DNA from: a virus
Taxonomy: Duplodnaviria; Caudoviricetes
Length of the DNA stretch: 24,915 nt
Direction: 5' to 3' (one strand)
Virus record (IMG/VR): IMGVR_UViG_3300033076_000019
Location: 1-24,915 of that record
In this document: one piece after another, positions 1,383-24,487 of the stretch
Layout of the letters: each line of letters starts with the position of its first letter
How positions within the stretch are numbered: position 1 is the first letter of the stretch
Notes under the pieces: generated by a model
Database searches by the model: none
What the model was told of the DNA's origin: nothing
Seen by the model: only the letters and a program-made list of their open reading frames with translations
Position numbers and translations under genes: made by a program

Positions 1383-1424
1383 TGGTGGGGGTGGTGGGGA
1401 CTTCGGTCCCCACTATTCCACTAT
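1382..1424 (+). terminator. Long hairpin with cUUCGg tetraloop at the convergence point of the two transcription units (terminator or RNA-stability element)
   Basis: GTGGGGAC-TTCG-GTCCCCAC perfect 8-bp stem (1394-1413), extendable to 1382-1424 with G-U pairs and one bulge. No clear U-tract. Confidence 0.65.
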
Positions 1425-4400
1425 CTGAAACTCTTCCTCTTCCTCATCATCTTCATCCTGAAGATCGGGGAAGTCCTCCTCCCCGCTGAGTAGAACATCG
1501 CGGCGAGCATCAAGGATCGCGCTGCGCTTGAGCTTACCATAGCTCTTGATGCGCGTCTCAGGATACAGATCGAACATCACGGCCTCACGCAGCGCCTCAT
1601 TGCTGGGCGGCTTCACGCCATTGGCCAGATTGCCGTCCTCGATATCCTTCTGGAACTGATCTGTGATGTTCTGGATCTCGCTCTCGAACTCTGCGCGCAG
1701 CTTATCGGCGCCAGCCAGATCACCGCTTCTCTCCAGTCGGACTGCGTCAGCCAACAGTTTGCCAAGGCGGCGCGTGTTGTTGCGCTCCTTGCCGGCAGTG
1801 CCGGTGTTGATCTCTTCGCCTGCCCGCTTGGCGCGAACGAGACGGGCGATGTCCGCGCTTTGGAAGCCGAGCGTGCGAGCCAACTGTTCACCAGCGGTGA
1901 TGTCCTCAGCCGACTTAATGTTGCTGCCGAACTGCGTGCGATAGCCTTCCTGCGGGAAGACGACCAAACCCTTCATAACATCCGTCACGCCCTTGCCCAT
2001 GACCGGCGAGAGTAGTGCTGTGTACGCACCAATCGGCTGGTCAGGCTTGCGGTTCTTGTATTCCTCGAACTTGCCCAGCGTCCCTGACAGCGCAGGGATG
2101 GCAGTGATCGGGTTGTTCAGCTCCGGCAGCATTGACGTGAAGCCGATGCGCTCACCGATGTTCAGGCCGAGCAGCGACCGGAACGGGCCATAGAGCAGAG
2201 CCTCTGCGTTGCGCTGTGCTTCTTCGCCGCCACCGAACAGATCGACCAGCATCTGCTGCGTCTCGAGGCGGAAGTCCCGCTTCTTGCCCGTGATCTTCTC
2301 GGTTAACCACTCGAAAATATTTATTGCATCATCACCAAACGGAATCGCGAACAGCAAGCCCGACACCGAGAACATGGTCAGCAGCGTGAACAGACCAGCC
2401 TGCTTGCCGCGCGGACCCATCTTGGCGAAGTTCTGGTACATCAGGTGCGCGACTTGCAGCGGGTATTGCGAGAACTGGAATGCCACGCCGCCCACGCCGC
2501 GCAGGATTGGCGCCTTTTCTATCTGACCGCCAATGAATGTGGTTGTCTCTGTCATGAACGCAGCAACGTCGCGCGGGTCTGAGCCGCGCTCCATGATCGC
2601 CTTGGCGCGCTCGTTATCAGCGAATGCCTTCTTCCAGTTTGCCAATGACTTGGGGTCTTTGGCGTACTTGTACGCAGACATGAAGGCCGCGACCTTGTTC
2701 ATCTCTTCTGTCATCGACACCACGCTGGCGCCAATGTCGAAGTAACGCTTCATCGCTTCGCCGATCTTGCCGCCCTTGGTTCTGAGCAGGCCAGCATCCA
2801 TGCCCATCAGCTCAGGGTTGATCTGCGCGCGCACGGTTCCAGTCTGGTACGCCCAGTTCAAGGCTTCCCGCTCATCAGGGCTGAGGCCCTTGATCTTATC
2901 GGGGTTGATGTATGCGCCGATGTTCTTGTCCAGACTGATCGCGCCGATCACCTTGACGGAGTTCTTGTACATCTCCTTCGAAGCGCCCTTCGACATGACG
3001 TACATCTGCGGTGCGACCACAGTCCACATGGACATGGCGTTGACCATCGACGAGGAGAAGCTGCCCCACATGGCGTTGTAGAAGCCAACGGCCCGTGCGC
3101 CGCGCCACAGCACATGCTCAGGCGTGTCGGCATTCCGATCCCACGACAGGGCGTAACGCAGCGCAGACGACCCCGGAGCGTGATTACGGACCATCTCGTC
3201 CTTGGCTTTTGAATACGCAGGATGATAGCGGCGATGCGAGATCGTCGAGGCCACGATACGGTTGTAATCGAACAGCCGGTCGATCAGGTTCGTGTCATAG
3301 CCCGGGATGTTCTGCGACTGCTTCATGAAGTTAGAAGCGATCTGCTTCATCAGGACTTCACGGATCTTGTCGGGCCACTCTGAGATAAAGCCCTTGGCCA
3401 GCTGCTCGGCATAAGCCTTCGAGTATTCGTCAAGCTCGCCGGTGTCGATCAGCCCGGCCATTGTGCTGTCGAAGTAATCCTTGATCGACTTGCCCGAGTT
3501 GGCGTTCATCAGCGCGACCAGCTTGTCCAGCGTGCCGAGATCCTCGAGCTGGAGCTTGTCGTCGATGTTCCCCGCCAGACGGGTATCGACAACCGTGTAC
3601 CCTTGGCTCTCGGGATACTTCTGTTTGATCTCGGCCAGACGCTTGTTCAATGCATTGTCAGGCACAGCTCGGCCCAGCGTGGGACCAACGATCTCGCGCA
3701 GCCACTGATTGCTGTCGAGCATATAGAACGCTGCCAGCTCAGTCTTTTCCTTGCCGTCAGCGTCAGTCGTCTTCTGCTTGACGATAACGCGCACGTCACC
3801 GCTACGCATGAACGGAATGTAGGACGTGACGCGCTGTGACTCGATGGCATTGTACAGGCGCAGCAAGCTGTCCCGATAGCTGATGTCCTTGGCCGTTTCG
3901 GCGGGCAGTGCATTGATGCCGTCAGCAGAATACGGGCCATTGTAGCCCATCGCCTGCAAGATCGACTGGCCGTTCAGCGTGTAAGTCTCGTCGAGGTAAT
4001 CACGAATCCGATAAAGGATCTGCGTCTCTTCCTTGTTCAGCTTCAGCGTGTCGCCCGGTTTGGAGAGCGCAGGAGCCATGTACTTCCCATCACGGAATAC
4101 CTTCTTGGTCGTGATCGAGAACTGGTCTGGCTTCTCCTTAATCGGCGTTGCCGACAGGCGCAGGTACTCCATGACCCGATTGATATTGTCCTTGCTCTCC
4201 TGCGACATGCGAGTGATGTCGCCGAACAGCTTCTCAGGGCGGGCCATCAGCAGGTTACGATACGCCAGCTTGTCGTTCATGTTATCGAACATGGCGCGGA
4301 AGTACTTGTTCACGCGCGCCAGAGCAGACGCCGGAGTGAGCGAGCCGAGCATGCCGATGTTGCTGATCGCGTCCACAGACGGCGATGTCGGGGGCATGAC

Positions 4401-7397
4401 CTGACCCTGCTTAGCCAGAGCCTTGGCCGAGAACTTGGGTACAGACTGGCCCTCCGACTGCATGTCGAGGCGCGCCTCATTGACCTTCTTTGTAGGTTCA
4501 GCGGCATCAGCGATGATCTTGTCGCCAGTCTCGCGGTCACCACTGGCGATCTCTGCGACTTTGGCGTCGGTATCAGCCTGCGTGTCTTCCTCTGTCACAG
4601 GCGCAGCTTCTTCGCCGATGCCAGTCACAGCGACGCCCGGCTCTTCCTCAGAAGTGGCCTGCTCCTCGGCAGTAGAAAGCGTCTTGGCCTGCTCCTCAGC
4701 TGGCAGCGTGGTCGTCGTCTCGCCAAACATGGTCAAGCGCGCGTTGCGCAGCTGCTTTGCAGGGCTTTCTGGAAGGACTTCTTCGGTGATCTCAATTAGC
4801 TTACGAAGGCCATTGATATCTTTATCGCTGAGGCCAAGCATCTTTCCGATGGCGCGCACGAATGCCGTGAAGCCGTTCACCTTCTTCACTTCGATCTGCT
4901 TCAGCAGATGCTGCATGCGCCAGTCAGTCAGGCCATAGGTCAGAAGCTCGTGTTCATTCTGGAACGCATTGCTATTCTGAAGGCTCGAGATGATTTCCTT
5001 GGTCCGCTGCGGGACCGCGATGGTGCCATTCATGACCCCATTGAAATACCTCTTCGCCTCCTTTTGGAGGCTGATCAGATCGCCGATGGCCTTGCCTACT
5101 CGGCTGTCCTTGGCGATCCGACCAGTTTGATACTGATAGATCAGGCCAGCAGTCGTGGCGTGAATGAACTCGTGCGTGGCTGTCGCCTCGTTCGCACCGC
5201 TGTTCGCATTGGGATAGTTGATATCCCGCAAAAGAATGTCCGAACGGTTCCAGCCCAAGGCGCTGGGGTAAGCAGTCACCTGACCGAGGATGCTCTTGCG
5301 GGCTTTGAACCTTTTGACGCTATCGGCCAGTAGAGGATCGCTTACCTTCGTGGTCGGCGAGACTACGTTTAAGCTGAACTTGTGACCCATCTTCTGCAGG
5401 GTCTTCATCATACCTGCGATGTTTTTATTCAGACTGCGGATATACCCAGACTTGGCATTGTTCGACAGATATGTGGCCGCACCGATTGCATTCTTCTTCT
5501 TGAGGTTCGCAGCCAGCTCGGCGGTTGGCGTGCGTGCAAGGATGCCCTCTTCTTCCGTGAACACATCGTCAGCGGCGGCAGGCGGGATCTTTTCGCCCGG
5601 CTCATTCGTAGGCGGTACAGGCGCGGGTTCGGCGACAGGGGGTGCTTCGCCGACCGGAGGAGTTTCGCCAATAGGGGGAGCTTCACCGACAGGCGGAGCA
5701 ACAGGAGCTGCGCCAACATCAGGCTCTACAATAGGAGGTGTGCCACCCACCGGCGCCGGAGTTGGAGAAGCGCCGATGGGTGGCGTCTCAACAGGGGAAC
5801 CCTCAACAGGCGGCGCACCCTCAATAGGAGGAACGCCGAGAGGGGTAGGGGACGGCGTGCCTCCAACAGGAGATGCAACCGGAGGAGTTTCCACCGGCGG
5901 AGATTCAATAGGGGCCTCACCAACTGGCGGGGCCTCACCAACCGGCGGAGTCTCACCAACGGGGGGAGCAGAAACCGGAGCAGGGCTGACGACGCCTTCA
6001 AGTGAGGCTGGGTCAACAAAGTATTGGCCACCCTCTGGGTCGACAAGAATGACGTGGCCCTCATCAGACATCCCGCCATAGGTGTACGGCGTGGGAGTTC
6101 CATCGTCATCAACGGTAATGTCAGCGCCCGGCTCGCCGAGTACGGAGATCAGTCCCTCTGATGGGGGCGCGGTGATAACAGGTGCTTTATATATCGGAGC
6201 AGGAGGCTGCGCCTCAGGAGGAAGCTGAGTTGCAGGCTCGGCCCCGCCACCGAATGCAGCGGCACCACCAGCACCAGCCACACCACCAAGCACCGCAGCT
6301 ATACCAGTCTGCGAGCCGACGCCTTCCAAGATGTCCTGCTCGGGATTGATCTGTCGCATGGCGATGTTGGCGCCCAAGCGGCCGCCACCTTCTTCGCCAG
6401 CTTCCTGCGCAGCTTCACCCAAGAAGCTCTTGCCTGCGCGGGACAGCAGCCCTGAGCCAGCCAGAGACTTGCCCAGAACCGCCTTTTCAAACGTACCCGG
6501 CAGCACCCCAGCCGTCAGCGCAGACACGCCGCCGCCGGCAATGGCGCTCTGACGCGCCACACTGAGGGCCATATCTTCCTTGACCTGCGTCGGATCTTCG
6601 CCAGCCTGCACACGTCCTGTGAACTCTGGGTTCTGCAGCCACACCTCATCAGGTGTTTCCATCGCCCGGACATAGGCATCGGTGCCGACATCAGCGCCCT
6701 GCTGCACCGCACCAAAGCCCACACCGCCAGTTACAGCGGCGCGCTGGACGGCACGCTCAGCGGCTGTCGCACCAATGCGGGCGGCTGCGCCAGTCTCCGC
6801 TGCTGCTGCAACCTGAGCTGCGCGCGTGGCTGCCTGCTCCGCAAGCTCACGGCTCAGAACACGTTTCGCCCCAGCCGAGGCTAGTGCGCCAGCCCCAGCG
6901 GTCCCGAACAGGGATGGAATTGTTTCAGCAACACCTGATGCCAACAGGCGCGGATCGGTCAGATATTCGCCGATGCCAGCCTTGAGGCCAGAGAAGAAGC
7001 CTTCCTTGTCGGCCTGCGCGATGCGTGCTTCAGCCGCTTCCTCGCGCGCCTTCAGGCCCGGGGATTTCAAGTCCTCGCCATACTGCCTGACCGAATTGGC
7101 CATGTCGCCAACAACCGTCTTGAAGTCGCCGCTGACTAAGCCGTAGACCTGAGCCGGCAACCCCAACAGCTGGCCCACGCCAGAGATCACAGACCCTGCG
7201 GTATCTTTCAGGAAATTGGTATCGTTGATGTCAGCCGCAGGCTTAGGCGCAGCGGGCGCCTTCAGTCCGATCTGCTGATAATACTGATCAAGCGGTACGT
7301 CGGCATAATATTTTTCGCGCAGGGCGTTAGCAAGCTGAACGTCACCAACATTGTTGTACTGCGGATATTTGCGACGGAAATCAGCAAGGGTGCCCAT
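1413..7397 (-). CDS. Giant internal virion / ejection protein, polyvalent-protein-like, with zincin HExxH motif and Pro-rich linker
   Basis: 1994 aa, last gene of the structural operon (the position of the largest ejection protein in podoviruses). It has an Ala/Gly-rich amphipathic N-terminal part, HEFIH at 5160-5174, a helical C-terminal half with a hydrophobic segment (GLFTLLTMFSVSGLLFAIPF), an acidic tail, and an AGGAAGG RBS-like sequence upstream. Confidence 0.7.
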   Translation of the reverse strand: MGTLADFRRKYPQYNNVGDVQLANALREKYYADVPLDQYYQQIGLKAPAAPKPAADINDTNFLKDTAGSVISGVGQLLGLPAQVYGLVSGDFKTVVGDMANSVRQYGEDLKSPGLKAREEAAEARIAQADKEGFFSGLKAGIGEYLTDPRLLASGVAETIPSLFGTAGAGALASAGAKRVLSRELAEQAATRAAQVAAAAETGAAARIGATAAERAVQRAAVTGGVGFGAVQQGADVGTDAYVRAMETPDEVWLQNPEFTGRVQAGEDPTQVKEDMALSVARQSAIAGGGVSALTAGVLPGTFEKAVLGKSLAGSGLLSRAGKSFLGEAAQEAGEEGGGRLGANIAMRQINPEQDILEGVGSQTGIAAVLGGVAGAGGAAAFGGGAEPATQLPPEAQPPAPIYKAPVITAPPSEGLISVLGEPGADITVDDDGTPTPYTYGGMSDEGHVILVDPEGGQYFVDPASLEGVVSPAPVSAPPVGETPPVGEAPPVGEAPIESPPVETPPVASPVGGTPSPTPLGVPPIEGAPPVEGSPVETPPIGASPTPAPVGGTPPIVEPDVGAAPVAPPVGEAPPIGETPPVGEAPPVAEPAPVPPTNEPGEKIPPAAADDVFTEEEGILARTPTAELAANLKKKNAIGAATYLSNNAKSGYIRSLNKNIAGMMKTLQKMGHKFSLNVVSPTTKVSDPLLADSVKRFKARKSILGQVTAYPSALGWNRSDILLRDINYPNANSGANEATATHEFIHATTAGLIYQYQTGRIAKDSRVGKAIGDLISLQKEAKRYFNGVMNGTIAVPQRTKEIISSLQNSNAFQNEHELLTYGLTDWRMQHLLKQIEVKKVNGFTAFVRAIGKMLGLSDKDINGLRKLIEITEEVLPESPAKQLRNARLTMFGETTTTLPAEEQAKTLSTAEEQATSEEEPGVAVTGIGEEAAPVTEEDTQADTDAKVAEIASGDRETGDKIIADAAEPTKKVNEARLDMQSEGQSVPKFSAKALAKQGQVMPPTSPSVDAISNIGMLGSLTPASALARVNKYFRAMFDNMNDKLAYRNLLMARPEKLFGDITRMSQESKDNINRVMEYLRLSATPIKEKPDQFSITTKKVFRDGKYMAPALSKPGDTLKLNKEETQILYRIRDYLDETYTLNGQSILQAMGYNGPYSADGINALPAETAKDISYRDSLLRLYNAIESQRVTSYIPFMRSGDVRVIVKQKTTDADGKEKTELAAFYMLDSNQWLREIVGPTLGRAVPDNALNKRLAEIKQKYPESQGYTVVDTRLAGNIDDKLQLEDLGTLDKLVALMNANSGKSIKDYFDSTMAGLIDTGELDEYSKAYAEQLAKGFISEWPDKIREVLMKQIASNFMKQSQNIPGYDTNLIDRLFDYNRIVASTISHRRYHPAYSKAKDEMVRNHAPGSSALRYALSWDRNADTPEHVLWRGARAVGFYNAMWGSFSSSMVNAMSMWTVVAPQMYVMSKGASKEMYKNSVKVIGAISLDKNIGAYINPDKIKGLSPDEREALNWAYQTGTVRAQINPELMGMDAGLLRTKGGKIGEAMKRYFDIGASVVSMTEEMNKVAAFMSAYKYAKDPKSLANWKKAFADNERAKAIMERGSDPRDVAAFMTETTTFIGGQIEKAPILRGVGGVAFQFSQYPLQVAHLMYQNFAKMGPRGKQAGLFTLLTMFSVSGLLFAIPFGDDAINIFEWLTEKITGKKRDFRLETQQMLVDLFGGGEEAQRNAEALLYGPFRSLLGLNIGERIGFTSMLPELNNPITAIPALSGTLGKFEEYKNRKPDQPIGAYTALLSPVMGKGVTDVMKGLVVFPQEGYRTQFGSNIKSAEDITAGEQLARTLGFQSADIARLVRAKRAGEEINTGTAGKERNNTRRLGKLLADAVRLERSGDLAGADKLRAEFESEIQNITDQFQKDIEDGNLANGVKPPSNEALREAVMFDLYPETRIKSYGKLKRSAILDARRDVLLSGEEDFPDLQDEDDEEEEEFQIVE
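5590..5990 (-). repeat. Degenerate ~18-nt coding repeat, PP(V/I)GE(T/A)-type, forming a ~130-aa Pro-rich tract
   Basis: Translation PPVGETPPVGEAPPVGEAPIESPPVETPP...PPVGEAPPIGETPPVGEAPPVAEP. Confidence 0.85.
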
Positions 7398-7422: not shown

Positions 7423-8604
7423 CTAGAGGTTCAACCCTAGCGGATTATTATTGGGAAGGCCAAGACTTCCAGCCAACAATGACTGCAATCCGGAAAGATC
7501 TCGCTTCAGTCGAGCGTTGTCGGCGAGCAGGCGGTTCTTCCTGTCACGCGAGATCGTGATGTCGTTAAGCTCTTGATTGTTGGCTGCGATCTGAGCCTTG
7601 ATCACGCCAGCCTGAGCATTGATTGTCTTCGTCGACAGGCCACCGCCACCACCAGAAGCAGCTTTATCCCGGGCAATCGCGAGCTGCGCGCCTCGGGTTT
7701 TGATAGTATCATAGACGTTAGCGATGTTCGCTCGCGTCAGCTGATTGCCAAGCGCCGCACCCTCGATGACATCGCCTGCAGTTTGTTCAGCAACGACACC
7801 AGCCAGAGCATCCTTGCGAAGCGCTTGAGTCGCAGCGGCGCCCTGCTTGGCAGCCAGACGCGCAGCAATCGCATCGTTAATCGCCTGATTCCGAAGCTCG
7901 ATAGATTTAAATACCAGCTCTTCCTTGGCATCCTGCAAGCGCGCCTTCTTCTCAGCGGCTTTTGCTTTGGCTTCACTATATCCTTCAAGGCCAGCCTCCA
8001 TACCGCTGGCCAAGGCTTGCATGAAGTAGGGCGATTGGCTCTGCGCCATCTTCATCCCAGCCTGAGCAACAGCCATCCACGTGGCTTGCTGGCGCTCTTT
8101 ATCGGCCTCAGTGAGCTGAATCCCGTAACGCTCAAGGCGCTCGTCAATCAGCTTCTGCGTTTCAGGGTCTATCTTGGCGGTGCGCGCGACCTCTTCATTC
8201 GCCTTTAGTTCGCTCAGCTGACCTTCCAACGCGGCCCTGCGCGCGACTTCAGCGAAGTCTACCGGCTTTCCTTTAACCGTAGGTGCTGGCGTACCAGCAT
8301 CTGGGTTCGCCGCTTTAAACGCAGCAAGCGCCGCCTCGTACCGGTTCATGTACGGCTGCTCTTTGGGCGCAACTTCTGCTTCAGGTGCGGGAGCAGGAGG
8401 CGGAGGCGGAGTGGGCGTGGGTTCAGCAACTACAGGCGCAGGGGCAGGAGCGGGTGCAGTGGCAGCAGGAGTGGCCGTGACAGGCGGGGTTGGCGCCTGT
8501 TCGCCACGCACAAGCTGATTGACAGCCTGCGTCATCGTCATCCCGGGAAACTGGTCCCGGTTCTTCAAATAGAAGTTGCGTGCCTGATTTACGCTCAGCC
8601 CCAT
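7423..8604 (-). CDS. Putative internal virion / ejection protein (Pro-rich N-terminus, coiled-coil)
   Basis: 393 aa, Ala/Lys/Glu-rich helical sequence with segment AVAQAGMKMAQSQSPYFMQALASGMEAGLEGY. Located between other ejection-type genes. Confidence 0.6.
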   Translation of the reverse strand: MGLSVNQARNFYLKNRDQFPGMTMTQAVNQLVRGEQAPTPPVTATPAATAPAPAPAPVVAEPTPTPPPPPAPAPEAEVAPKEQPYMNRYEAALAAFKAANPDAGTPAPTVKGKPVDFAEVARRAALEGQLSELKANEEVARTAKIDPETQKLIDERLERYGIQLTEADKERQQATWMAVAQAGMKMAQSQSPYFMQALASGMEAGLEGYSEAKAKAAEKKARLQDAKEELVFKSIELRNQAINDAIAARLAAKQGAAATQALRKDALAGVVAEQTAGDVIEGAALGNQLTRANIANVYDTIKTRGAQLAIARDKAASGGGGGLSTKTINAQAGVIKAQIAANNQELNDITISRDRKNRLLADNARLKRDLSGLQSLLAGSLGLPNNNPLGLNL

Positions 8605-8608
8605 CAGC

Positions 8609-9556
8609 TTAATCCTTCAGCCAGCCAAGACCTGCCTTAGCGTTCTTCGACTTCTTGGCTTTCTTCTCGTCGACCTTCCCGCCTTCCTTCAGCCCGAGCC
8701 AGCCGCTCTTGCCGAACGCGCCGGTTGCGCCAAGAATACCAACAGCACTGGTGAGGCCACCAAGGATCTGACCAGTCGTCGAAGGCTTCGGAGCTGTTGT
8801 AGAGGTGGTGCCAGAACCCTGCGCGCTTGGCGTTCCACCAATCGCGGCCAAACGCTGCACCTGCTCATACGGATATTCACGCTGCGCGAGGAAGTCCTGA
8901 TAGGCCAGATCGGCAGAACGCTGACCGAGCTGCTGACGCTGCGAGCCAATCTGCTCGAGGCCAGCCAGATCCAAGTTACGCTGCTTCTGCAGCTGCTCCG
9001 CAATCGACGCCATGTATGGGGATGCGGTAATCAGGCGGTTCTGCTCTGCGTTGTACTGGGCCTGCGCGTTTTCAAAGGCGCCGCTCATAGCCTTGTTCTG
9101 CTCAGAAAGCGCGGCCGCTTGCGTGTCACGAATAGCGCGGTTCGTAAACTCAGCACTGCGTGAGCCGCCAAACGTGCCACCGCCAACGAAGGTGCGATTG
9201 ATCTGCGGCAGAATGTTTTCATAAAGGTTGCGGCCAGCCGTAGCGCCAATGCCAGCGACCACGTTCTGAATGTACGGGTTCATGTACTGCCGAGCGACAC
9301 CCGGCTGAGCAAAAGACTGCGTACCTTGCTGCAGCCCTTGAGATGCCGCCTGAAGATACGGCTGATAGCTGCCCATTGAAGACTTAAAGCCAGTGAAGGC
9401 CTGCTCTTGCTCAGGTGAAAAGCCAGCAATCCGAGGCGCGCCATACGCCGTATAAGGCTGTGCCGTAGCGGCAGTCGCCTTAGAAAGAATGTCCTTGGCA
9501 TACTGAGTATACCACTCTGGGAGTATGACCTCAGTCTGAGTTGTATTCAGGGCCAT
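8609..9556 (-). CDS. Putative internal virion / DNA-transfer (pilot) protein
   Basis: 315 aa, Q/A-rich, with YMNPY and GGTFGGSR motifs that I recognise from podophage ejection proteins. C-terminal Gly-rich amphipathic helix (GQILGGLTSAVGILGATGAFG). TAATG overlap with the upstream gene. Confidence 0.6.
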   Translation of the reverse strand: MALNTTQTEVILPEWYTQYAKDILSKATAATAQPYTAYGAPRIAGFSPEQEQAFTGFKSSMGSYQPYLQAASQGLQQGTQSFAQPGVARQYMNPYIQNVVAGIGATAGRNLYENILPQINRTFVGGGTFGGSRSAEFTNRAIRDTQAAALSEQNKAMSGAFENAQAQYNAEQNRLITASPYMASIAEQLQKQRNLDLAGLEQIGSQRQQLGQRSADLAYQDFLAQREYPYEQVQRLAAIGGTPSAQGSGTTSTTAPKPSTTGQILGGLTSAVGILGATGAFGKSGWLGLKEGGKVDEKKAKKSKNAKAGLGWLKD

Positions 9557-12500
9557 TAGACCGAACCTCCTACCGCCTTGAGCATGGTATCGATCCCCTG
9601 CTGCGGTTTAGCTATGTTCTTTACATCTTTACGTCCGGCGCGTCTACGCACCATCTGTCTCATTTTATCAAGGCGTCGCACACCTTCATCTGTCGATCCG
9701 TCACCCAGATCGGCAACATCCTGCGCGCTCCAGACGTACTCGCCATCAGAGAGCCATGCCGGGATCTTGTCCTCTTGGCCACTGCCAATACCCTTGACTC
9801 GGCCCGGACCCTGATGGCCTCCGTTCTTATGATAGGCCATCAGGTGCGCGGCCATATCGTCACCATCGACATCACCACCCTCTGCCATAGCTGGGTTAGC
9901 TAAATACGCGGCCTCTGATGTGTCCTCGGATTGGCTATAGGTAAATGGATTAAAGCCAGCTCGCGACGCCGCTGCATTTAGATCAGCAAGAGAGGGCGCC
10001 CTGCGCTCGCCGCCACCTACGTTGTAAACGATTGTTGGGTTGGGGGAGTTGGCCACCGCGCTAAGAGTTTCACCGTATCCGCGAGAACCAATTGGGTTCA
10101 CAGCTCCATTGATCGCTGCATAGCCGGCAGGAACGAATGGCGCATTACCGATACCTGCGCGGCCTTGGCCGGTTTCACGTTCGCGTCGGATATCTTCGGT
10201 ATATGCAGGATCATCCCTTACATCATCCCAATACTTGATTGTCTGCTCCGCCACGTCCGGGCCGTACTCACGAACAGCGCTCATCCGGCGCGCCCATTCC
10301 TCCTCAGTGTTCCCAACGAGGCGTGGGGGAAGCTCATTGGTGCGCCCCTGCATGTAGTCCAGATAGGCTTTTTTCCATTGCGGCGTGTATTGATATTCAG
10401 AGTCAACAACTCCGCCATCAGCCATAGCTGGCGGCGCAAGCCCCGCAGAGGAAAGGTAAGTATTAACTGCGTTCTGAGCGCCAGCTAGGTCGTTCGCCCC
10501 GACAAATGGTTCAACCGCCTGCTGCAATGCGCGGGCCTTAACGGCGTCCAGCTTGCCAGTGTTATAATAAGAGCTGGCCAGTGGCGTGACGTAATCCATG
10601 TAATAGGACCGTGCCGTCATGCCTTGAGCAGGGGCGGCCTGAGCCGCTTTAACCTGCGTCGGGATTTGGGCAGCAATGGCTTCACGCTGCGCAGCCTCTG
10701 CATCAAGCTTTGCCTGTTGGAGATCGCGCATCGACATCTGAGTGCCGACCAACTCTGGCCTACCGATAGCCGCAGCCGTTGCTGCATCGATGTCAAAGTA
10801 AACGCCGGCAGGGTTAATGGCACGAGCCGCAGCCGCAGTCGGCGCAGCCTCAGTGGCCTCCATGATGCGGTCAATCTCAGCGAGGCGTTTCATTTCCTCT
10901 TCATTGGCCGGGCGGTAGACACCTGACTTAAATGCGTCAGCAATCGAAGTGACATTCGTTGCGCCATTGCCCGGCATCAGAACCTGCTTGCCATTGTTGT
11001 CGGTGGCCAGCCACTGCCAGCCCTTTGCGTCACCACCCCAGACATATGTTTTCCCATCGACCACCTGAGTGTCGCCGATCTTCTGGTTCGACATAACGCC
11101 TGTGAAGCCAGTGGGTCGCGTCTGCGTCGTGCCACCCGGAGTGCCGCCCGGAGGCGTCCCACCCGTCGTGCTACCTGTTGTGCCGCCTGTTGTGCCGCCT
11201 GTTGTGCCACCAGTGGTCGTTGTTGTGGTTCCAGCCGAACCGCCAATCGCAGATGTCGGTCCAGTGTATGAGCCTACGATACCAGCTGGCTTGCCGCCTT
11301 GAGTGAAGAACAAGAACTCACCCGGCTGATCGCCAGTCGCCTGTCCATAAGTGAACGGATCGAACCCAATGTTAGCGATGCCGCGCGTGCCAAAGATATC
11401 CGCGCGATTTGGATTGATGTCATAAGTCCCACCACGCGGAACCAGCGGCGATGTATTGTCAGCGGTCGTTGTGGTTGTGCCGGTGTTGTAGAAATTGGTG
11501 TCTTTGACGTTACCCTTGTCAGTACCAGTATCTTTACCAGTGGTTGTGGTCGTGGTGGTGCCAGTCGTGAGGTTAACATTATCAGTACCGGAGCCAGTGA
11601 CGACGATCTCGTCCTTATCCTTGGTCTGGTCTTTACCCTTGTCAGCCCCAGTGTCTTTACCGGTTGTTGTGGTCGTGGTGCTGCCAGTGGTCAGGTTTAC
11701 GTTGTCGGTGCCAGAGCCAGTGACAGTAATCTCATCCTTGTCTTTGGTTTGATCTTTACCCTTGTCGCCGCCCTTATCTGCGCCAGCGCCCGTACCGCCG
11801 CCAGTCGTGACCGTACTGCCGTTTGTCAGGTTAACATTGTCCGTGCCGATACCGCTGACGACAATTGCGTCATCTTTTGTTTCGCCGGCCTTCGTGTCAC
11901 CAGCCTTGGTTTCGCCAGCCTTGGTTTCGCCGCCCTTCGTGCCACCAGTCGTGCTGCCAGTGGTCAGGTTTGTATTGCCAACGGTCTCACCAGTTACGAT
12001 GATGTTGCCGTTAGCATCGACATTCGTTGCACCGGGTACGAACCAATCTGAAGTCGCGCCGCCAAGGTCGATGCCAGTAGCATCGCTGATGTCTACGCCC
12101 GTATTATAAAGGAACTTGGCTGCATCGCCGAGGCCAAGGATGTTTTTGTCTACAATCTTATCGAAGAGTTGATTGGACGCATACGTTCCAACGCCAGACT
12201 GCACACCGCGCAGCAGCGCATCTTCAAGGCTTGCACCAGTAACCGCAGCACCGGCAGTCGTCCCAAGACCAGCGCCAATCGCGCGGCCGACTTCTTCAGA
12301 TACGCCAGTAAGACCGGGAAGCACCTTGCTACCGATCTGACCAGCGCCTGCTGTCGCTGCGGTGAGGGCGGTGTTTTTAAGGATGTCGCCAATGTCGTCT
12401 CCGCTAATGACGCCAGATGCCGCACTGACTGCAGCTGCTGCGCCCACAGGGCCAAGCACGGGCGTCAGGAGAACGGTGCCAGCGATTTTAGCAACAGTAC

Positions 12501-12762
12501 CCAATATCTTACCGAACAAGCCATATGCCGGCAGACCCGTCTCAGGGTTAATGCCCGGCTCACCCCACATCTCGCGGAGTTTTTCAAGTTCGTATTTGTT
12601 GACGTGAATTAGTTCGCTGTCGCCATATTCATTGGCCATCGGCGATCCCTTGACCGCCTGCGCTGCAGCTACAAGGCCGCCACTCTTATACGCGCGCGGT
12701 CTGGTCGCGGGGATGTGGACCCAGTAACGCTCTCCACCACCAATGCCTGCAAGAGCTGCCAT
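9556..12762 (-). CDS. Putative internal virion / ejection protein with TonB-box-like repeats and xAxGG motifs
   Basis: 1068 aa. N-terminal GDSELIHVN...GINPETGLPAY segment followed by Gly/Ala hydrophobic helices, then Thr/Gly/Asp/Lys repeats, and a C-terminal GPG...DKIPAWLSDGEYV domain of the kind seen in virion-internal and tape-measure proteins. Confidence 0.65.
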   Translation of the reverse strand: MAALAGIGGGERYWVHIPATRPRAYKSGGLVAAAQAVKGSPMANEYGDSELIHVNKYELEKLREMWGEPGINPETGLPAYGLFGKILGTVAKIAGTVLLTPVLGPVGAAAAVSAASGVISGDDIGDILKNTALTAATAGAGQIGSKVLPGLTGVSEEVGRAIGAGLGTTAGAAVTGASLEDALLRGVQSGVGTYASNQLFDKIVDKNILGLGDAAKFLYNTGVDISDATGIDLGGATSDWFVPGATNVDANGNIIVTGETVGNTNLTTGSTTGGTKGGETKAGETKAGDTKAGETKDDAIVVSGIGTDNVNLTNGSTVTTGGGTGAGADKGGDKGKDQTKDKDEITVTGSGTDNVNLTTGSTTTTTTGKDTGADKGKDQTKDKDEIVVTGSGTDNVNLTTGTTTTTTTGKDTGTDKGNVKDTNFYNTGTTTTTADNTSPLVPRGGTYDINPNRADIFGTRGIANIGFDPFTYGQATGDQPGEFLFFTQGGKPAGIVGSYTGPTSAIGGSAGTTTTTTGGTTGGTTGGTTGSTTGGTPPGGTPGGTTQTRPTGFTGVMSNQKIGDTQVVDGKTYVWGGDAKGWQWLATDNNGKQVLMPGNGATNVTSIADAFKSGVYRPANEEEMKRLAEIDRIMEATEAAPTAAAARAINPAGVYFDIDAATAAAIGRPELVGTQMSMRDLQQAKLDAEAAQREAIAAQIPTQVKAAQAAPAQGMTARSYYMDYVTPLASSYYNTGKLDAVKARALQQAVEPFVGANDLAGAQNAVNTYLSSAGLAPPAMADGGVVDSEYQYTPQWKKAYLDYMQGRTNELPPRLVGNTEEEWARRMSAVREYGPDVAEQTIKYWDDVRDDPAYTEDIRRERETGQGRAGIGNAPFVPAGYAAINGAVNPIGSRGYGETLSAVANSPNPTIVYNVGGGERRAPSLADLNAAASRAGFNPFTYSQSEDTSEAAYLANPAMAEGGDVDGDDMAAHLMAYHKNGGHQGPGRVKGIGSGQEDKIPAWLSDGEYVWSAQDVADLGDGSTDEGVRRLDKMRQMVRRRAGRKDVKNIAKPQQGIDTMLKAVGGSV
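11174..11209 (-). repeat. 12-bp tandem repeat x3 (CCTGTTGTGCC[G/A]) encoding GTTG units
   Basis: Read directly from the sequence. Confidence 0.85.
11511..11766 (-). repeat. 123-bp (41-aa) tandem repeat, two full copies; two more diverged copies extend to ~12010
   Basis: TACCCTTGTC ends at 11520, 11643 and 11766 (period 123). Unit DKGKDQTKDKDEI(T/V)VTGSGTDNVNLTTG(S/T)TTTTTTGKDTG(A/T). Confidence 0.9.
11878..11940 (-). repeat. 15-bp coding repeat (TK[G/A]G[E/D] x4)
   Basis: Translation TKGGETKAGETKAGDTKAGETK. Confidence 0.8.
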
Positions 12763-12764
12763 CT

Positions 12765-13022
12765 CTATGATCCCTGACTAATCACGTCGTTAAAACGCAT
12801 CGCCCACTCACGCCAATCGTCAAACTGATAGGCGTCGGGGACGCCAAGAGATGCGAGTGACGCAATCGTTGATAACCCAGACGCCCAGTTTTTCCAATCT
12901 CTTTCGTCCATGAGGCGCACAGCCACCCCAAAGTCCTCAATCGACGGAAACATATAGTCGGCCCAGTCCACCACATTGTCGACAATGCGCGGATCAATAG
13001 TGGTGGTTCTAACCTTCGCCAT
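12765..13022 (-). CDS. Hypothetical Trp-rich virion-module protein
   Basis: 85 aa, translationally coupled to the upstream gene (TAATG at 13020-13024). Fills the gap exactly. Confidence 0.7.
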   Translation of the reverse strand: MAKVRTTTIDPRIVDNVVDWADYMFPSIEDFGVAVRLMDERDWKNWASGLSTIASLASLGVPDAYQFDDWREWAMRFNDVISQGS

Positions 13023-14626
13023 TAGCTTTGGTAGCGGCCATCCGCCGCTTCGATGTGTGCGATAACCTGACCCATCTGGTAATCACCGCCAACCGTGTTC
13101 GATGAGAACCGGAAGCGCAGCTCGCGCCGCTGCTCCTTGAAGAACACCTGCTGTTCATACTTCTCTGTAGCCACAGCCGGGAAGCTGTGCAGCGGGCCGT
13201 TAACTTCAGGCGCGCGCGCGTTGATGCGACCAGTGATCTGGACGGTCATGTCACCCTGCTGCACGAAGTCAGGCTCAATCATCTCAACGTGGATCGATCG
13301 GTTGCGCGGGTTTTCGTCGTTGATCAGCGAGATGTCGCCAGTCTCGAAATAGCTCTCAACGGCATTGATCTGCGCGCCGTCAATCTCATCCACGCCGAAC
13401 TCATGCTGCCAGATACGATAGCGCGTCGGGCCATTGCTGACCACGCGGATGGCTTCCGTCTGGGTGATGCGGGTGTCGCTTGCTTCCGTGATGCGGATGT
13501 CGGCCACGCCGGGGCTGATTGGGTCGATGCCGGCAAGGATCGGGCGGTTCAGAGAGCCTGCATAGATGCCAGCCGAGCGCCCCAGATTGGGGAGCTGTGT
13601 GTCATACCACGTCTGCTCGCGGAAGTTATAAATCACAGCGTGCGTGCATTCCGTCGCATTGCCACGCGGATAGCACCACCAGATCTCGCCGAAGCGCGGA
13701 ACCTTATAGGCGAATACCTTATTCGCGCACGCCCGGTTCAGGCCGTCAAAGAAGTAATTGATGTTCATGTTGTTCGGCACTTCGCGAACGACGCCGTTGT
13801 ACATCATGAAGCGGCCATCACCAACCCAGAAGTAAATGCCGTCATACTCAATGACGCTGTTTACTGCGATAATCGATGAGGAGGAGCTGATCGTATCAAA
13901 CGCGAACACATCCGTTCCGCCCGTGTAATAGACGCGGATCAGGCTATCGAGCGTCCACAGAAGGCCGGCAGGGTTCTGACCACCGCCACGCAGCGGCAGG
14001 CCCTTGACGATCTTCGAGGAGGCAATGAACGCATCGCCCGCGTCGCCCGTCGTGAAGTTCGTGGGATCGTTCGCATCCGACCACTTAACGTAACCGTTCT
14101 GAGAAAACATAAACAGGTACGGGTGCAGAACCACAACGCCACCGCTCACACCAGCAGTCGGGATGGGCGTCAGGGGCGTCGTGCCGTAGATGTCCCCGAG
14201 ATAGGCCGGATAGTTTGTGCCAGTCGAAATATCGAGAGCCGACTCAGACGGGTGCGCGATGACCACTGTCGAGCTTCCAGCGCCGTCATAAAGCGCATCA
14301 AACTGCCACATGAAGTTCGGACCGCCTGTGTACGTCGTCGGCGTGCGCGAGCTGACGGAGCTGGTGTTCCCAACGCTATCAATCGTCATGCGCTGGATGC
14401 CTTCACCATAACCCATGTGGGTATAGGTGAAGTTGTTCAGCGATTGCAGATGGAACTGATTGACGACGCCTTCGACGTAATTGGTGATCTGCCGATACCC
14501 GCCGATCTTGCGCGGCAAACCGCGCTGAAAGCGAACCCATTGCCCGTCAACGTAGAAGTTCCCTTCGAACTTCGTGCCGTCACGCTTGATGCCCGGCTCT
14601 GATCTGACGTTAATGGGTACGAGCAT
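13022..14626 (-). CDS. Putative tail nozzle / head-closure protein (P22 gp10-like or tail tubular protein B-like)
   Basis: 534 aa, beta-rich. Starts PGIKRDGT...DGQWVRFQRGLPRKIGGY, contains KWSD..DPTNF and FGEIWWCYP...YNFREQTWY, and ends DGR. Positioned just before the ejection genes. Confidence 0.7.
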   Translation of the reverse strand: MLVPINVRSEPGIKRDGTKFEGNFYVDGQWVRFQRGLPRKIGGYRQITNYVEGVVNQFHLQSLNNFTYTHMGYGEGIQRMTIDSVGNTSSVSSRTPTTYTGGPNFMWQFDALYDGAGSSTVVIAHPSESALDISTGTNYPAYLGDIYGTTPLTPIPTAGVSGGVVVLHPYLFMFSQNGYVKWSDANDPTNFTTGDAGDAFIASSKIVKGLPLRGGGQNPAGLLWTLDSLIRVYYTGGTDVFAFDTISSSSSIIAVNSVIEYDGIYFWVGDGRFMMYNGVVREVPNNMNINYFFDGLNRACANKVFAYKVPRFGEIWWCYPRGNATECTHAVIYNFREQTWYDTQLPNLGRSAGIYAGSLNRPILAGIDPISPGVADIRITEASDTRITQTEAIRVVSNGPTRYRIWQHEFGVDEIDGAQINAVESYFETGDISLINDENPRNRSIHVEMIEPDFVQQGDMTVQITGRINARAPEVNGPLHSFPAVATEKYEQQVFFKEQRRELRFRFSSNTVGGDYQMGQVIAHIEAADGRYQS

Positions 14627-22497: not shown

Positions 22498-23151
22498 TCA
22501 GTCCTCCCTGCGGATGATGCCACGGTCGACGATCTGACGGATGTCTTCGCCATTGAGCGCAGCGATGGCACGGTCATAGAAGCCCTGCCAGATGGGAATG
22601 ATTTCCTCGTTCTTGAGGAACGGAGCAGCCTCCAAGAGAGAGGCATAGAGCAGCGCGTTCGGCGCGTACTCGGTGAACCAGTTGGTCTGCACGTCGTCGC
22701 CAAGCAGCGGCGGCAGCTCGTAATAGATGATCTCATAGGGGAAATCATCAGAAGGCGTCGGCGCGAAGAACCAGTGCTGATAGTCATAGTCCGCGTAGAA
22801 GCGCGGCGTGCCGGTCTGCGTCTGGTTCGGCCAGTATTGGCGCATATACTCATACGCACGCGGGAAGATCTCGCGCGTCGTATTGTAGCCAGCGCCTGTT
22901 CCGACGCGCATGCTGACGGTTTCACGCCAGCGATCAGGCTTCGGATAGGTAGCCTGCCCCTGCGTCATGGTCGAGCTGACCACAGTGACCGTACCCTGAA
23001 TCTTCAGCTCACGCGCAAGACGACGCTCAGCAAGCCCAACCAAGCTGGGAAGCTGCAAATAAACTGAAGGGTCAGTGGCCAGCGTAGCTCCGCGCTCCAG
23101 ATAATTCCGGAGGTCATCGAGCAAACTGTTATACGTCATCGCTGTGGCCAT
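22498..23151 (-). CDS. Putative head-tail adaptor (tail tubular protein A-like)
   Basis: 217 aa with MTYNSLLDDLRNYLER...LAERRL start, GTPRFYA, FFAPTP, and TNWFTEYAPNALLYASLLEA pattern typical of podophage adaptors. Confidence 0.7.
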   Translation of the reverse strand: MATAMTYNSLLDDLRNYLERGATLATDPSVYLQLPSLVGLAERRLARELKIQGTVTVVSSTMTQGQATYPKPDRWRETVSMRVGTGAGYNTTREIFPRAYEYMRQYWPNQTQTGTPRFYADYDYQHWFFAPTPSDDFPYEIIYYELPPLLGDDVQTNWFTEYAPNALLYASLLEAAPFLKNEEIIPIWQGFYDRAIAALNGEDIRQIVDRGIIRRED

Positions 23152-23375: not shown

Positions 23376-23987
23376 TTAGAGCCAAGTAGCGTACTTCTTG
23401 GTCTTCATTTTACGGTCATCAAGACCGTGCGTGCCGCCATTGATGCGCTTTGTCAGGGCAAGAATGGCAGCGTCGTTGATACCCTGATCGCAGATGCCCC
23501 AGAGTTTGTTGGCATCGAAGAACCACAGCGCGCTTTCAAAGCCAAGTTCGCCAGCGACAAGGTCAGGGTTCTCCATAACGTCCGGACGATTGATGTAATC
23601 GGAGAACGCTTTGTAGTTGTTATGGCCCGTCAATTGGAGGGGGCCTCGGCCACGCCACCGCCATCCAGATCCGCTGGCTTCGTCCCCATTGCCCATGCGA
23701 TTTGCATAGACACGATTGGCAATCTTCTGCGGTTGACGTTCGTAGGCTTTAGCCAGCGCATCAGTCGGGAAGTACTTGCCGAAAATGCCGCGCAGACCCT
23801 TTGCGCCATAGTTCAGGTTCTCCGAGAACGCCTTGAAGTTGCCGCTTTCGTGCGCGCATTGCGCGAAGAAGTGGGCAGCGCGGTTCTTGTTGAGCTTGTA
23901 ATAAGCGGCAGCGGCCTTCAGCGTGCCGGGGCCGAAAGCCCCGTCAGCCGTTACGCCAATCTTTTTCTGAAGTTCTACGAGGCTCAT
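23376..23987 (-). CDS. Endolysin, glycoside hydrolase family 19, with short N-terminal peptidoglycan-binding-like motif
   Basis: AAHFFAQCAHESGNF...ENLNY, RGRGPLQLTGHNNY and RINGG are GH19 signatures. N-terminal LQKKIGVTADGAFGPGT. ATG at 23987 overlaps the upstream TGA (ATGA) and has GGAGG upstream. Confidence 0.9.
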   Translation of the reverse strand: MSLVELQKKIGVTADGAFGPGTLKAAAAYYKLNKNRAAHFFAQCAHESGNFKAFSENLNYGAKGLRGIFGKYFPTDALAKAYERQPQKIANRVYANRMGNGDEASGSGWRWRGRGPLQLTGHNNYKAFSDYINRPDVMENPDLVAGELGFESALWFFDANKLWGICDQGINDAAILALTKRINGGTHGLDDRKMKTKKYATWL

Positions 23988-24487
23988 TTGTTTGGATTCC
24001 TCCAATCAGGGAAGTCGTTTTCATCAACCACGCCGTCGCCATTAATGTCATACCGCATGTCGTTCCGGTACTTTTCCCACGGGGCCATATCGTCATCATC
24101 GTCGTCATCATCAACGACTTCGGTCAGCTCGACGGCCTCTTCCTTCTTCTCGAAGAAAGTTTCCTTAGGCTCATCATCATCGTTGGTCACAACGGATACA
24201 CTCACCGGAGTTTCAACGCTGGTGCGCTGAGCAAGCTCAGGGATTTCAGTGGCCTGCGGTTCACCCTTCATGCCCATCAGAGTGGCATAGGAGCCAGCGA
24301 CGGCACTGATGACAGATGTCATGACGTAACCAAGAAGGCCAAATACCTTTTCGTTATCGACAATGTCGTTTGATACGAACAGGCCGGCCACCATAGCGGC
24401 AGTGATCGCGAGGATGACAATTGCCATCGTATAGGCCGCAATCATCAACGCTTTGATGCGGGCGGTAATCAGCTGATCTTCCATCAT
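23984..24487 (-). CDS. Two-TM membrane protein (holin candidate) with acidic tail and EF-hand-like loop
   Basis: 167 aa with two hydrophobic segments in the first 75 aa, a D8 run, and DINGDGVVDENDF. Coupled to the endolysin gene. Confidence 0.65.
   Translation of the reverse strand: MMEDQLITARIKALMIAAYTMAIVILAITAAMVAGLFVSNDIVDNEKVFGLLGYVMTSVISAVAGSYATLMGMKGEPQATEIPELAQRTSVETPVSVSVVTNDDDEPKETFFEKKEEAVELTEVVDDDDDDDDMAPWEKYRNDMRYDINGDGVVDENDFPDWRNPNK

Follow-up and report, generated by a model that had tools for sequence, protein, structure and literature searches.

Locus and gene organization

The window analyzed here is the whole 24.9-kb stretch of DNA (24,915 nucleotides) that makes up positions 1 to 24,915 of the IMG/VR virus record IMGVR_UViG_3300033076_000019 (Duplodnaviria; Caudoviricetes). 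Its subject is a protein of 1068 amino acids (aa), here P0001, that carries an array of four short motifs resembling the TonB boxes of bacterial TonB-dependent transporters (Table 1). The P0001 gene lies downstream of the genes for an SU10-type head-tail adaptor, the tail fibers, and the 534-aa and 85-aa proteins, and is itself followed by the phrog_4287 DNA ejection gene and then by the genes for the 393-aa and 1994-aa proteins. This position, between the tail genes and the other ejection genes, is that of the internal/ejection proteins of podophages. P0001 belongs to no Pfam, PHROG or NCBIfam family; from synteny and homology, we infer that it is packaged in the virion and ejected on infection. 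The 534-aa protein, some homologs of which are annotated as 'stabilization protein', is likely to be a tail nozzle/stabilization protein. The P0001 gene was recovered, whole or in part, in 20 public runs from nine studies, mostly of freshwater or other aquatic samples, and the source is an uncultured freshwater phage, of which P0001 would be a likely injected protein. Four related contigs are binned in metagenome-assembled genomes (MAGs) titled Alphaproteobacteria, Sphingorhabdus, beta proteobacterium and Parvibaculum; binning of this kind is no proof of host but, along with the Caulobacter phages that are the closest cultured relatives (see below), it suggests that the clade of the window infects Alphaproteobacteria.

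Table 1. Features of the P0001 gene and of its neighborhood, in window coordinates
Feature	Position	Strand	Remarks
P0001	9556..12762	-	1068-aa putative core/ejection protein; ortholog of Caulobacter phage RW gp66
N-terminal conserved module	12523..12624	-	residues 47-80; ends INPETGLPAY; present in some orthologs only
Gly/Ala-rich hydrophobic block	12163..12507	-	residues ~86-200; extent read from sequence
Copy 1, GNIIVTGE	11986..12009	-	core residue 254; 2.9 bits against host-box profile (weak)
Copy 2, DDAIVVSG	11851..11874	-	core residue 300; 8.7 bits
Copy 3, DEITVTGS	11713..11736	-	core residue 345; 16.8 bits
Copy 4, DEIVVTGS	11590..11613	-	core residue 386; 23.1 bits (best); copy used in complex prediction
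Tandem duplication of 123 bp	11510..11766	.	holds copies 3 and 4; Tandem Repeats Finder (TRF) period 123, 2.1 copies, 82% matches
FDPFTYG...EFLFF landmark	11305..11364	-	residues 467-486; closes the motif-bearing linker
Conserved C-terminal domain	9559..9891	-	residues 958-1068; common to tape measure proteins
DNA ejection protein	8609..9556	-	315 aa; phrog_4287, E 6.5e-21; RW gp65 ortholog, 38% identity
Putative ejection protein	7423..8604	-	393 aa; assigned by position; no Pfam/PHROG family match
Large putative ejection protein	1413..7397	-	1994 aa; partial phrog_2206 match (virion RNA polymerase family), residues 734-905, E 5.1e-19
Protein in RW gp67 position	12765..13022	-	85 aa; no Pfam/PHROG match
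Virion structural protein	13022..14626	-	534 aa; phrog_3287, E 6e-36; 47.2% identity to RW gp68
Head-tail adaptor	22498..23151	-	SU10-type (short-tailed); PF24175, E 3.3e-27

The motif array of P0001

The domain order of P0001 is as follows: hydrophobic block, box array, conserved landmark, variable part and a tape-measure-like end. In the Gly/Ala-rich block, 19-residue hydropathy windows peak at 1.6-1.8 at residues 86-120 (by hydropathy only, without a membrane predictor), and the block is likely to be membrane-inserting. Translation of the minus strand yields the four motifs exactly as listed in the first-pass annotation, each with the N-x-N-L-T-[TN]-G tail that was described there. A pattern written post hoc to cover the motifs has four matches in P0001, compared with a mean of 0.04 in shuffled sequences, and none of 20,000 shuffles reaches four. 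The tail was rejected as a part of the motif because it is local: a similar one follows only 15 of the 125 core motifs found in the family (see below).

The four copies are not independent of each other given that copies 3 and 4 lie in one tandem duplication. The two duplicated units differ by 18 synonymous and 3 non-synonymous substitutions over 41 codons. In run X1, one of four public runs that were compared, an independent single contig covers positions 11480-12800 without gaps and with 31 substitutions; an assembly artifact is thereby excluded as the source of the array, and the presence of the four motifs is confirmed. A variant of copy 3 that reads like copy 4 (letters at 11725-11728) appears in public runs X5, X7 and X8, possibly in part through cross-mapping from copy 4.

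Conservation of the motif across the protein family

Orthologs of P0001 were gathered without using the motif, either through the gene for the 534-aa protein (the best 80 of 395 IMG/VR loci) or through the C-terminal domain (the best 120 of 300 proteins, with lengths of 587-1869 aa only). As the host yardstick, 20 boxes were taken from TonB-dependent transporters of a single Sphingorhabdus MAG (20 of the 28 plug matches with loci), the core of each being located by pattern just upstream of the plug. With the resulting profile, at a threshold of at least 10 bits, 229 matches are detected in 92 of 121 proteins picked by the C-terminal domain, compared to about 6-7 in 20 shuffles; after dereplication to less than 15% shared 5-mers, there are 43 matches in 20 of 28 proteins versus 1.4 in shuffles. 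For the I-x-V-[TS]-[GA] core alone, the count is 125 in the set of 59 dereplicated orthologs, 47 of which have it (shuffle mean 7.3, maximum 17 in 200 shuffles), and the reversed core pattern is seen once in the same 59 proteins. The enrichment over shuffled sequences for which the first-pass annotation had proposed to test homologs is thus evident, and it does not extend to the neighboring ejection genes. Among genes of the same loci, profile matches are absent from the 534-aa family (0/18), the adaptor (0/8), the homologs of the 315-aa (dereplicated, 0/22), 393-aa (0/7) and large 1994-aa (dereplicated, 0/6) proteins, and other downstream proteins (0/35). Proteins encoded upstream, which by position are largely tail fibers, have 12 matches in 11 of 179, one tenth of the rate in the orthologs. 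The RecT protein of the window (open reading frame 1-1068) has a single match of 13.1 bits at residue 237 that is most likely due to chance and illustrates the false-positive level of the profile.

The location of the motif is fixed as well. In the 53 of the 59 proteins that contain the FDPFTYG landmark, 123 of the 124 profile matches lie ahead of it without being upstream of the first hydrophobic window, and 0/124 follow it. Searches with the repeat region as the query found no homologs: residues 235-430 gave no match among 8000 candidates, an ESM Atlas search with residues 240-430 gave no usable match, and an alignment of the motifs compared with PDB sequences gave two chance-level matches (E 0.18 and 0.67), neither to a transporter. 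The middle parts of the orthologs are too divergent for the first of these searches to succeed, and yet most orthologs carry the motif. Judging from the sequences, the motif is a trait of this protein family that is common and lineage-specific, not universal.

The closest cultured relatives of the phage are the Caulobacter vibrioides phages RW, RLK, KcrB and GB2A, with 47% identity in the 534-aa protein and, in RW, the same gene order. Phage RW (proposed Riverwalkvirus) encodes a syntenic ortholog, gp66, in which DEIVVT is found in a Pro/Thr-rich linker along with degenerate copies; this match scores 17.2 bits, and nothing else in all six frames of the RW genome reaches 10 bits. Unlike P0001, gp66 is 580 aa long, contains one strong copy that ends in Pro, and is annotated as hypothetical. 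In the accessible part of the paper describing RW, TonB is not mentioned (PMC11053796). The motif was rejected as a general trait of Caulobacter podophages, given that JessA, Percy, Cd1 and Lullwater show 2, 1, 2 and 3 scattered six-frame matches, respectively, and none of these falls in an internal-virion gene. Proteins of the ejection region of Ochrobactrum phage OH, Octadecabacter phage DB2 and Pseudomonas phage Clew-1 were also discarded; they have single matches with maxima of 10.9 and 8.9 bits and no arrays.

Similarity to host TonB boxes and two motif flavors

Copies 4 and 3 fall within the leave-one-out range of the host boxes (19 of the 20 Sphingorhabdus boxes at 12.5-25.9 bits). Because the host cores were located by pattern, the core is partly fixed by selection, and the flanks were therefore assessed separately. 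At these unselected positions, the phage motifs have an acidic residue at -2 in 55 of 122 cases and at -1 in 59 of 122 (background 12%), and a basic one at +6 in 47 of 122 (background 5%); the corresponding frequencies in the Sphingorhabdus boxes are 50%, 50% and 70%. Owing to the relatedness of the motifs, p-values computed for the flanks overstate the certainty. The likeness to sphingomonad TonB boxes that had been noticed in P0001 on first inspection thus holds against 20 real boxes, both in profile scores and in unselected flanks.

A second clade was collected through a homolog of the 534-aa protein with 55% identity (the best 80 of 165 loci; 54 complete orthologs, 21 after dereplication). 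Here, 17 of the 21 proteins carry a form L-x-E-V-V-V-T-G-x-[KR]. The motifs in these 17 number 53, whereas shuffles yield 5.8; position -3 is Leu in 80% of the motifs, and +6 is K/R in 91%. In boxes derived from genomes of the class of genome G003 (22 of 30 loci gave a box), Leu or Met occupies -3 in 16 of 22, whereas Leu is found there in 2 of the 20 Sphingorhabdus boxes. We take the class of G003 to be Gammaproteobacteria as defined in GTDB; under this assignment, the L-E-E-V-V-V-T-G form of the second clade appears closer to gammaproteobacterial boxes. When each motif is assigned to the profile that it prefers, 92 of 121 motifs in the clade of the window go to the sphingomonad profile and 31 of 41 in the second clade to that of the G003 class. 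The two flavors resemble two host classes and fit host matching, under which box flavor would track the host taxon, a relation that the first-pass annotation had proposed to check.

Spacing, predicted structure and predicted complex with TonB

The gaps between the successive copies in the window are 46, 45 and 41 residues. The median in the clade of the window is 56.5 residues (interquartile range 42-65, n=78) and that of the second clade 51 (interquartile range 45-58, n=36), with gaps shorter than 25 residues in 3 of 78 and 0 of 36 cases compared with 16.7 and 9.1 expected under random placement. In the available part of a study on BtuB, about 50 residues, or 20 nm, are modeled to unfold downstream of the box (PMC5413942), and the match between the gap of about 50 residues and this reported stroke is suggestive, by analogy. 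The spacing is thus compatible with the early suggestion that tandem boxes would allow ratcheting.

AlphaFold2 run without an alignment on residues 241-425 produces a strand meander (predicted local distance difference test (pLDDT) 55, predicted template modeling score (pTM) 0.48) that matches no fold with an E of 0.001 or lower. FoldIndex of residues 260-425 is -0.08, and two or more prolines are present in 88 of the 125 motif flanks. Disorder of the linker is plausible and partly supported. A beta-solenoid was not accepted for this region, although a model as poor as this one cannot exclude it.

A complex was predicted for residues 374-407 of P0001 (51-row alignment) and the C-terminal domain of a Sphingorhabdus TonB (34 rows), whose gene precedes two others that we read as exbB and exbD. 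The prediction gives weak support for binding, with a score of 0.48 compared with 0.01 for the best control and 0.00 when an unrelated protein replaces TonB; the runs agree in at least 82% of the contacts, and the pLDDT of the partner is about 49-50. For calibration, the mark used for complexes is reached by 116 of 157 solved pairs and 2 of 215 mismatched pairs; among those with a score of 0.60 or less, it is reached by 18 of the 157 solved pairs and by both mismatches. The binding to TonB that was anticipated at first reading is thus weakly predicted.

Proposed mechanism and alternatives

On a slight balance of probability, the array represents colicin-like TonB-box mimicry, in which TonB-ExbBD helps to pull the ejected protein out through the phage tail during entry. 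Packaged P0001 would exit N-terminus first, with the hydrophobic block leading and entering the membrane, by analogy with crAss001 gp45, for which the accessible part of the respective study proposes a hydrophobic helix at the N terminus and exit in the N-to-C direction (PMC10172136). The boxes would then emerge one by one in the periplasm, where each would pair as a beta-strand with TonB's C-terminal domain, and successive boxes would allow repeated strokes of about 20 nm to ratchet out the C-terminal part. Transporter boxes pair with TonB by such beta-augmentation (PMC11658791, section 4.2). The phage tail would serve as a box-less channel, as TolC does for klebicin C, whose own box on the cargo suffices for pulling it through (PMC11658791, section 4.10), and import of colicin B is lost without its box, according to the part of PMC8546555 available. 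Because some orthologs lack the motif, the array is probably an accessory and not a universal requirement. The first-pass idea that the ejected protein could use TonB is partly supported, by box likeness, enrichment, flavors, spacing and the weak complex; the ejection that it presupposes is deduced from synteny and homology.

Several observations weigh against this mechanism. The strict core motif is missing in 12 of the 59 orthologs, several of the proteins without a profile match show degenerate forms on reading, and no motif is present in the orthologs of DSL-LC04, L085 and L086 or in the short proteins of L059, L061 and L063; the internal-virion genes of JessA, Percy, Cd1 and Lullwater have no profile match either. 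Within P0001, copy 1 is a weak match, and the profile of the other class gives copy 3 a slightly higher score; in the family, the host flanks show no enrichment at positions +5 and +7 (p 0.09 and 0.22). Sequence likeness is not a specific proof in any case, since local structure counts for more in a TonB box than side chains do (PMC11658791, section 4.2). Tandem duplication alone can regularize the spacing; AlphaFold2 drew a low-confidence beta-meander rather than a coil, and FoldIndex is below 0 in only 26 of 125 family flanks. Finally, a complex score of 0.48 falls in a band where, for any guess not already likely, predictions fail more often than they hold; the output lists no contacts, and, with TonB-box complexes already solved, a pass may reflect likeness or memory only.

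The alternative that survives best, still an unlikely one, is that the motifs do bind TonB but work as a tether or a decoy instead of a winch, either holding the protein at an energized inner-membrane site or blocking uptake or competing TonB-dependent phages. All the sequence evidence and the complex prediction fit this possibility equally well, and TonB-box peptides in free form are inhibitors of TonB-dependent processes, phi80 infection among them, as reported in the available part of PMC9841981. A decoy, however, would need neither the spacing floor of about 25-30 residues nor a median near one reported stroke, the boxes are always behind the hydrophobic block, and probably only a few molecules per virion would be delivered, once. 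For two related functions suggested at the outset, superinfection exclusion by jamming TonB and the matching of several TonB paralogs, no supporting evidence was obtained.

Somewhat less probable is that the motif pairs by beta-augmentation with some other protein of the host envelope (the related TolA motor domain, a chaperone of the periplasm or a protease, for example) and resembles TonB boxes by convergence. The phage motifs indeed vary more than host boxes (with N, E, P or S in the core), and TonB is the sole host partner that was modeled; against this stand the acidic residues at -2 and -1, K/R at +6 and the clade-specific Leu at -3, which reproduce the detail of transporter boxes, and the null score of the unrelated protein in place of TonB (TolA was not among these controls). 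About equally improbable is a role internal to the phage, whereby the motifs are strands of a self-folding beta-repeat or a docking/packaging signal for the capsid, portal or a partner ejection protein. AlphaFold2 does pair each motif in residues 241-425 with the following N-x-N-L-T strand, and P0001 holds other short conserved motifs of unassigned role, but the model is the poor one described above and matches no fold. A self-folding repeat is further disfavored by the copy number of 0-6 and the rarity of the partner strand in the family; spacing that ranges from 17 to more than 300 residues, the prolines in the flanks, and a flavor that differs between the clades as the host boxes differ also speak against a phage-internal function. 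Very improbable is the neutral explanation, in which tandem duplication has spread either fragments captured from transporter genes of the host or the products of low-complexity drift: copies 3 and 4 are indeed duplicated at the DNA level and motif-less orthologs exist, but the enrichment survives dereplication, changes in the duplicated unit are mostly synonymous, the motif position is fixed, and two clades keep different, box-like forms.

Returning to TonB-powered pulling, a broader claim falls somewhat short of an even chance and is advanced tentatively: widespread aquatic podophages might power part of their entry by TonB-ExbBD of the host, using host-matched boxes placed one motor stroke apart as a ratchet that is driven by the proton-motive force, runs through the tail, helps to form the DNA conduit and needs no TonB-dependent receptor as a gate. 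The crossing of the envelope by ejection proteins is usually ascribed to capsid pressure, and a phage-borne array of TonB boxes would add a host-powered step; if true, motor hijacking of the colicin type extends to viruses. Box flavor could then be a determinant of host range and a marker for host prediction in many uncultured aquatic phages, and natural arrays would offer a measure of the TonB stroke length. The cultured pair of phage RW and Caulobacter vibrioides CB15 makes the question directly testable.

Other features of P0001 and of the locus

Among the remaining parts of P0001, the N-terminal module has counterparts in the proteins of L059, DSL-LC04 and L086, and its words are enriched among the orthologs. 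The words of the landmark are the most enriched of all; no other internal motif of the family is as well conserved as FDPFTYG...E[FY]LFF (11305-11364), which has a counterpart in RW gp66 and may dock a partner ejection protein. The C-terminal domain is similar to the tape measure protein of PDB 8zdo (E 1.4e-5), with matches to tape measure proteins also in phage records, and is 79-96% identical across the 120 listed homologs and 51.6% identical to RW. The same domain, with several A-x-G-G motifs, is found in gp81 of Pelagibacter phage HTVC104P (L211:6144-7445), encoded directly after the portal gene, a position which hints that the domain is a head-packaging/processing module rather than a part of tape measure proteins. 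This protein was dropped as an ortholog or control because, apart from the shared domain, it is motif-less and its gene adjoins that of the portal. Motifs of the form x-[AK]-x-G-G (YKSGG, MADGG, MAEGG, HKNGG, LKEGG) turn up repeatedly where modules meet, both in this locus and in relatives, in P0001 at residues 25, 780, 959 and 978 (9559-9891, 10414-10428 and 12676-12690) and in the protein encoded at 8609-9556 at residue 289; we take them to be possible maturation cleavage sites, an idea that comes from the processing of tape measure proteins.

Orthologs of P0001 show additional variation. The motif-less proteins of DSL-LC04 (L210:6889-9168) and L086 (L086:2042-4006) have other tandem repeats at the same linker position, five near-identical units in the case of DSL-LC04, which are perhaps a handle for a different host partner. 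In some orthologs (L024:10219-13089 and P0050), the landmark is followed by many units of about 33 residues with Y-x-x-I-x-Q and G-x-[FWY]-x-G patterns that have the look of small folded repeats. The ortholog in MW202545 (L082:16059-19220), with one box-like motif, and its neighbor are unusually Cys-rich, which may reflect either a reassigned codon or a disulfide-rich linker. Elsewhere in the window, the 1994-aa protein contains a Pro-rich repeat (5628-5969) and, within its partial phrog_2206 match, an HEFIH segment that is presumably a zincin-like motif. The 167-aa protein encoded at 23984-24487, beside a GH19 endolysin, combines two hydrophobic segments with an acidic tail bearing what we take to be an EF-hand- or dockerin-like motif.

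Comparison with known systems

TonB boxes borne by cargo are already known, and what would be new here is their presence on a phage. In the open literature, with most subscription papers outside the search, no description of phage-encoded TonB boxes in ejection, virion or tape measure proteins was found; the accessible part of a preprint on huge phages mentions, with regard to TonB, only a phage-encoded receptor (10.64898/2026.10.24.761521).

With the boxes of TonB-dependent transporters (FhuA, BtuB and the 20 from Sphingorhabdus), the motifs share the I-[VI]-V-T-[GA] core, the acidic residues that precede it and K/R at the second place behind it, as well as weakly predicted binding to TonB. 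In contrast to these transporters, P0001 has no signal peptide, plug or barrel (no Pfam match; the plug domain PF07715 has no match anywhere in the genome), and its boxes are internal rather than N-terminal, occur in up to six copies per protein of the family and reside on a protein of a phage virion module. Tape measure proteins have the C-terminal domain in common with P0001, whose gene also adjoins the phrog_4287 ejection gene. The ejection or cargo proteins of podophages, such as crAss001 gp45 and T7 gp14, have in common with it an N-terminal hydrophobic segment, putatively membrane-inserting in P0001, and proposed N-to-C extrusion, without shown sequence homology; in the available part of that account, the driving force is head pressure and TonB is unmentioned (PMC10172136). 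Infection by the TonB-dependent phages T1 and phi80 is likewise linked to TonB energy but relies on the receptor FhuA and its box, and the consulted sections of that review describe no phage-encoded box (PMC11658791). A parallel in mechanism would be the group B colicins and, for passage via TolC, klebicin C and colicins 5 and 10, in which a foreign protein brings its own box in a flexible part and crosses a box-less channel (PMC11658791 and the accessible part of PMC8546555). Whereas these bacteriocins combine an N-terminal box with a toxic cargo, P0001, encoded in a virion operon and without receptor-binding or cytotoxic domains of bacteriocins detectable by Pfam or NCBIfam, has an internal array behind a hydrophobic block, and its channel would be the phage tail.

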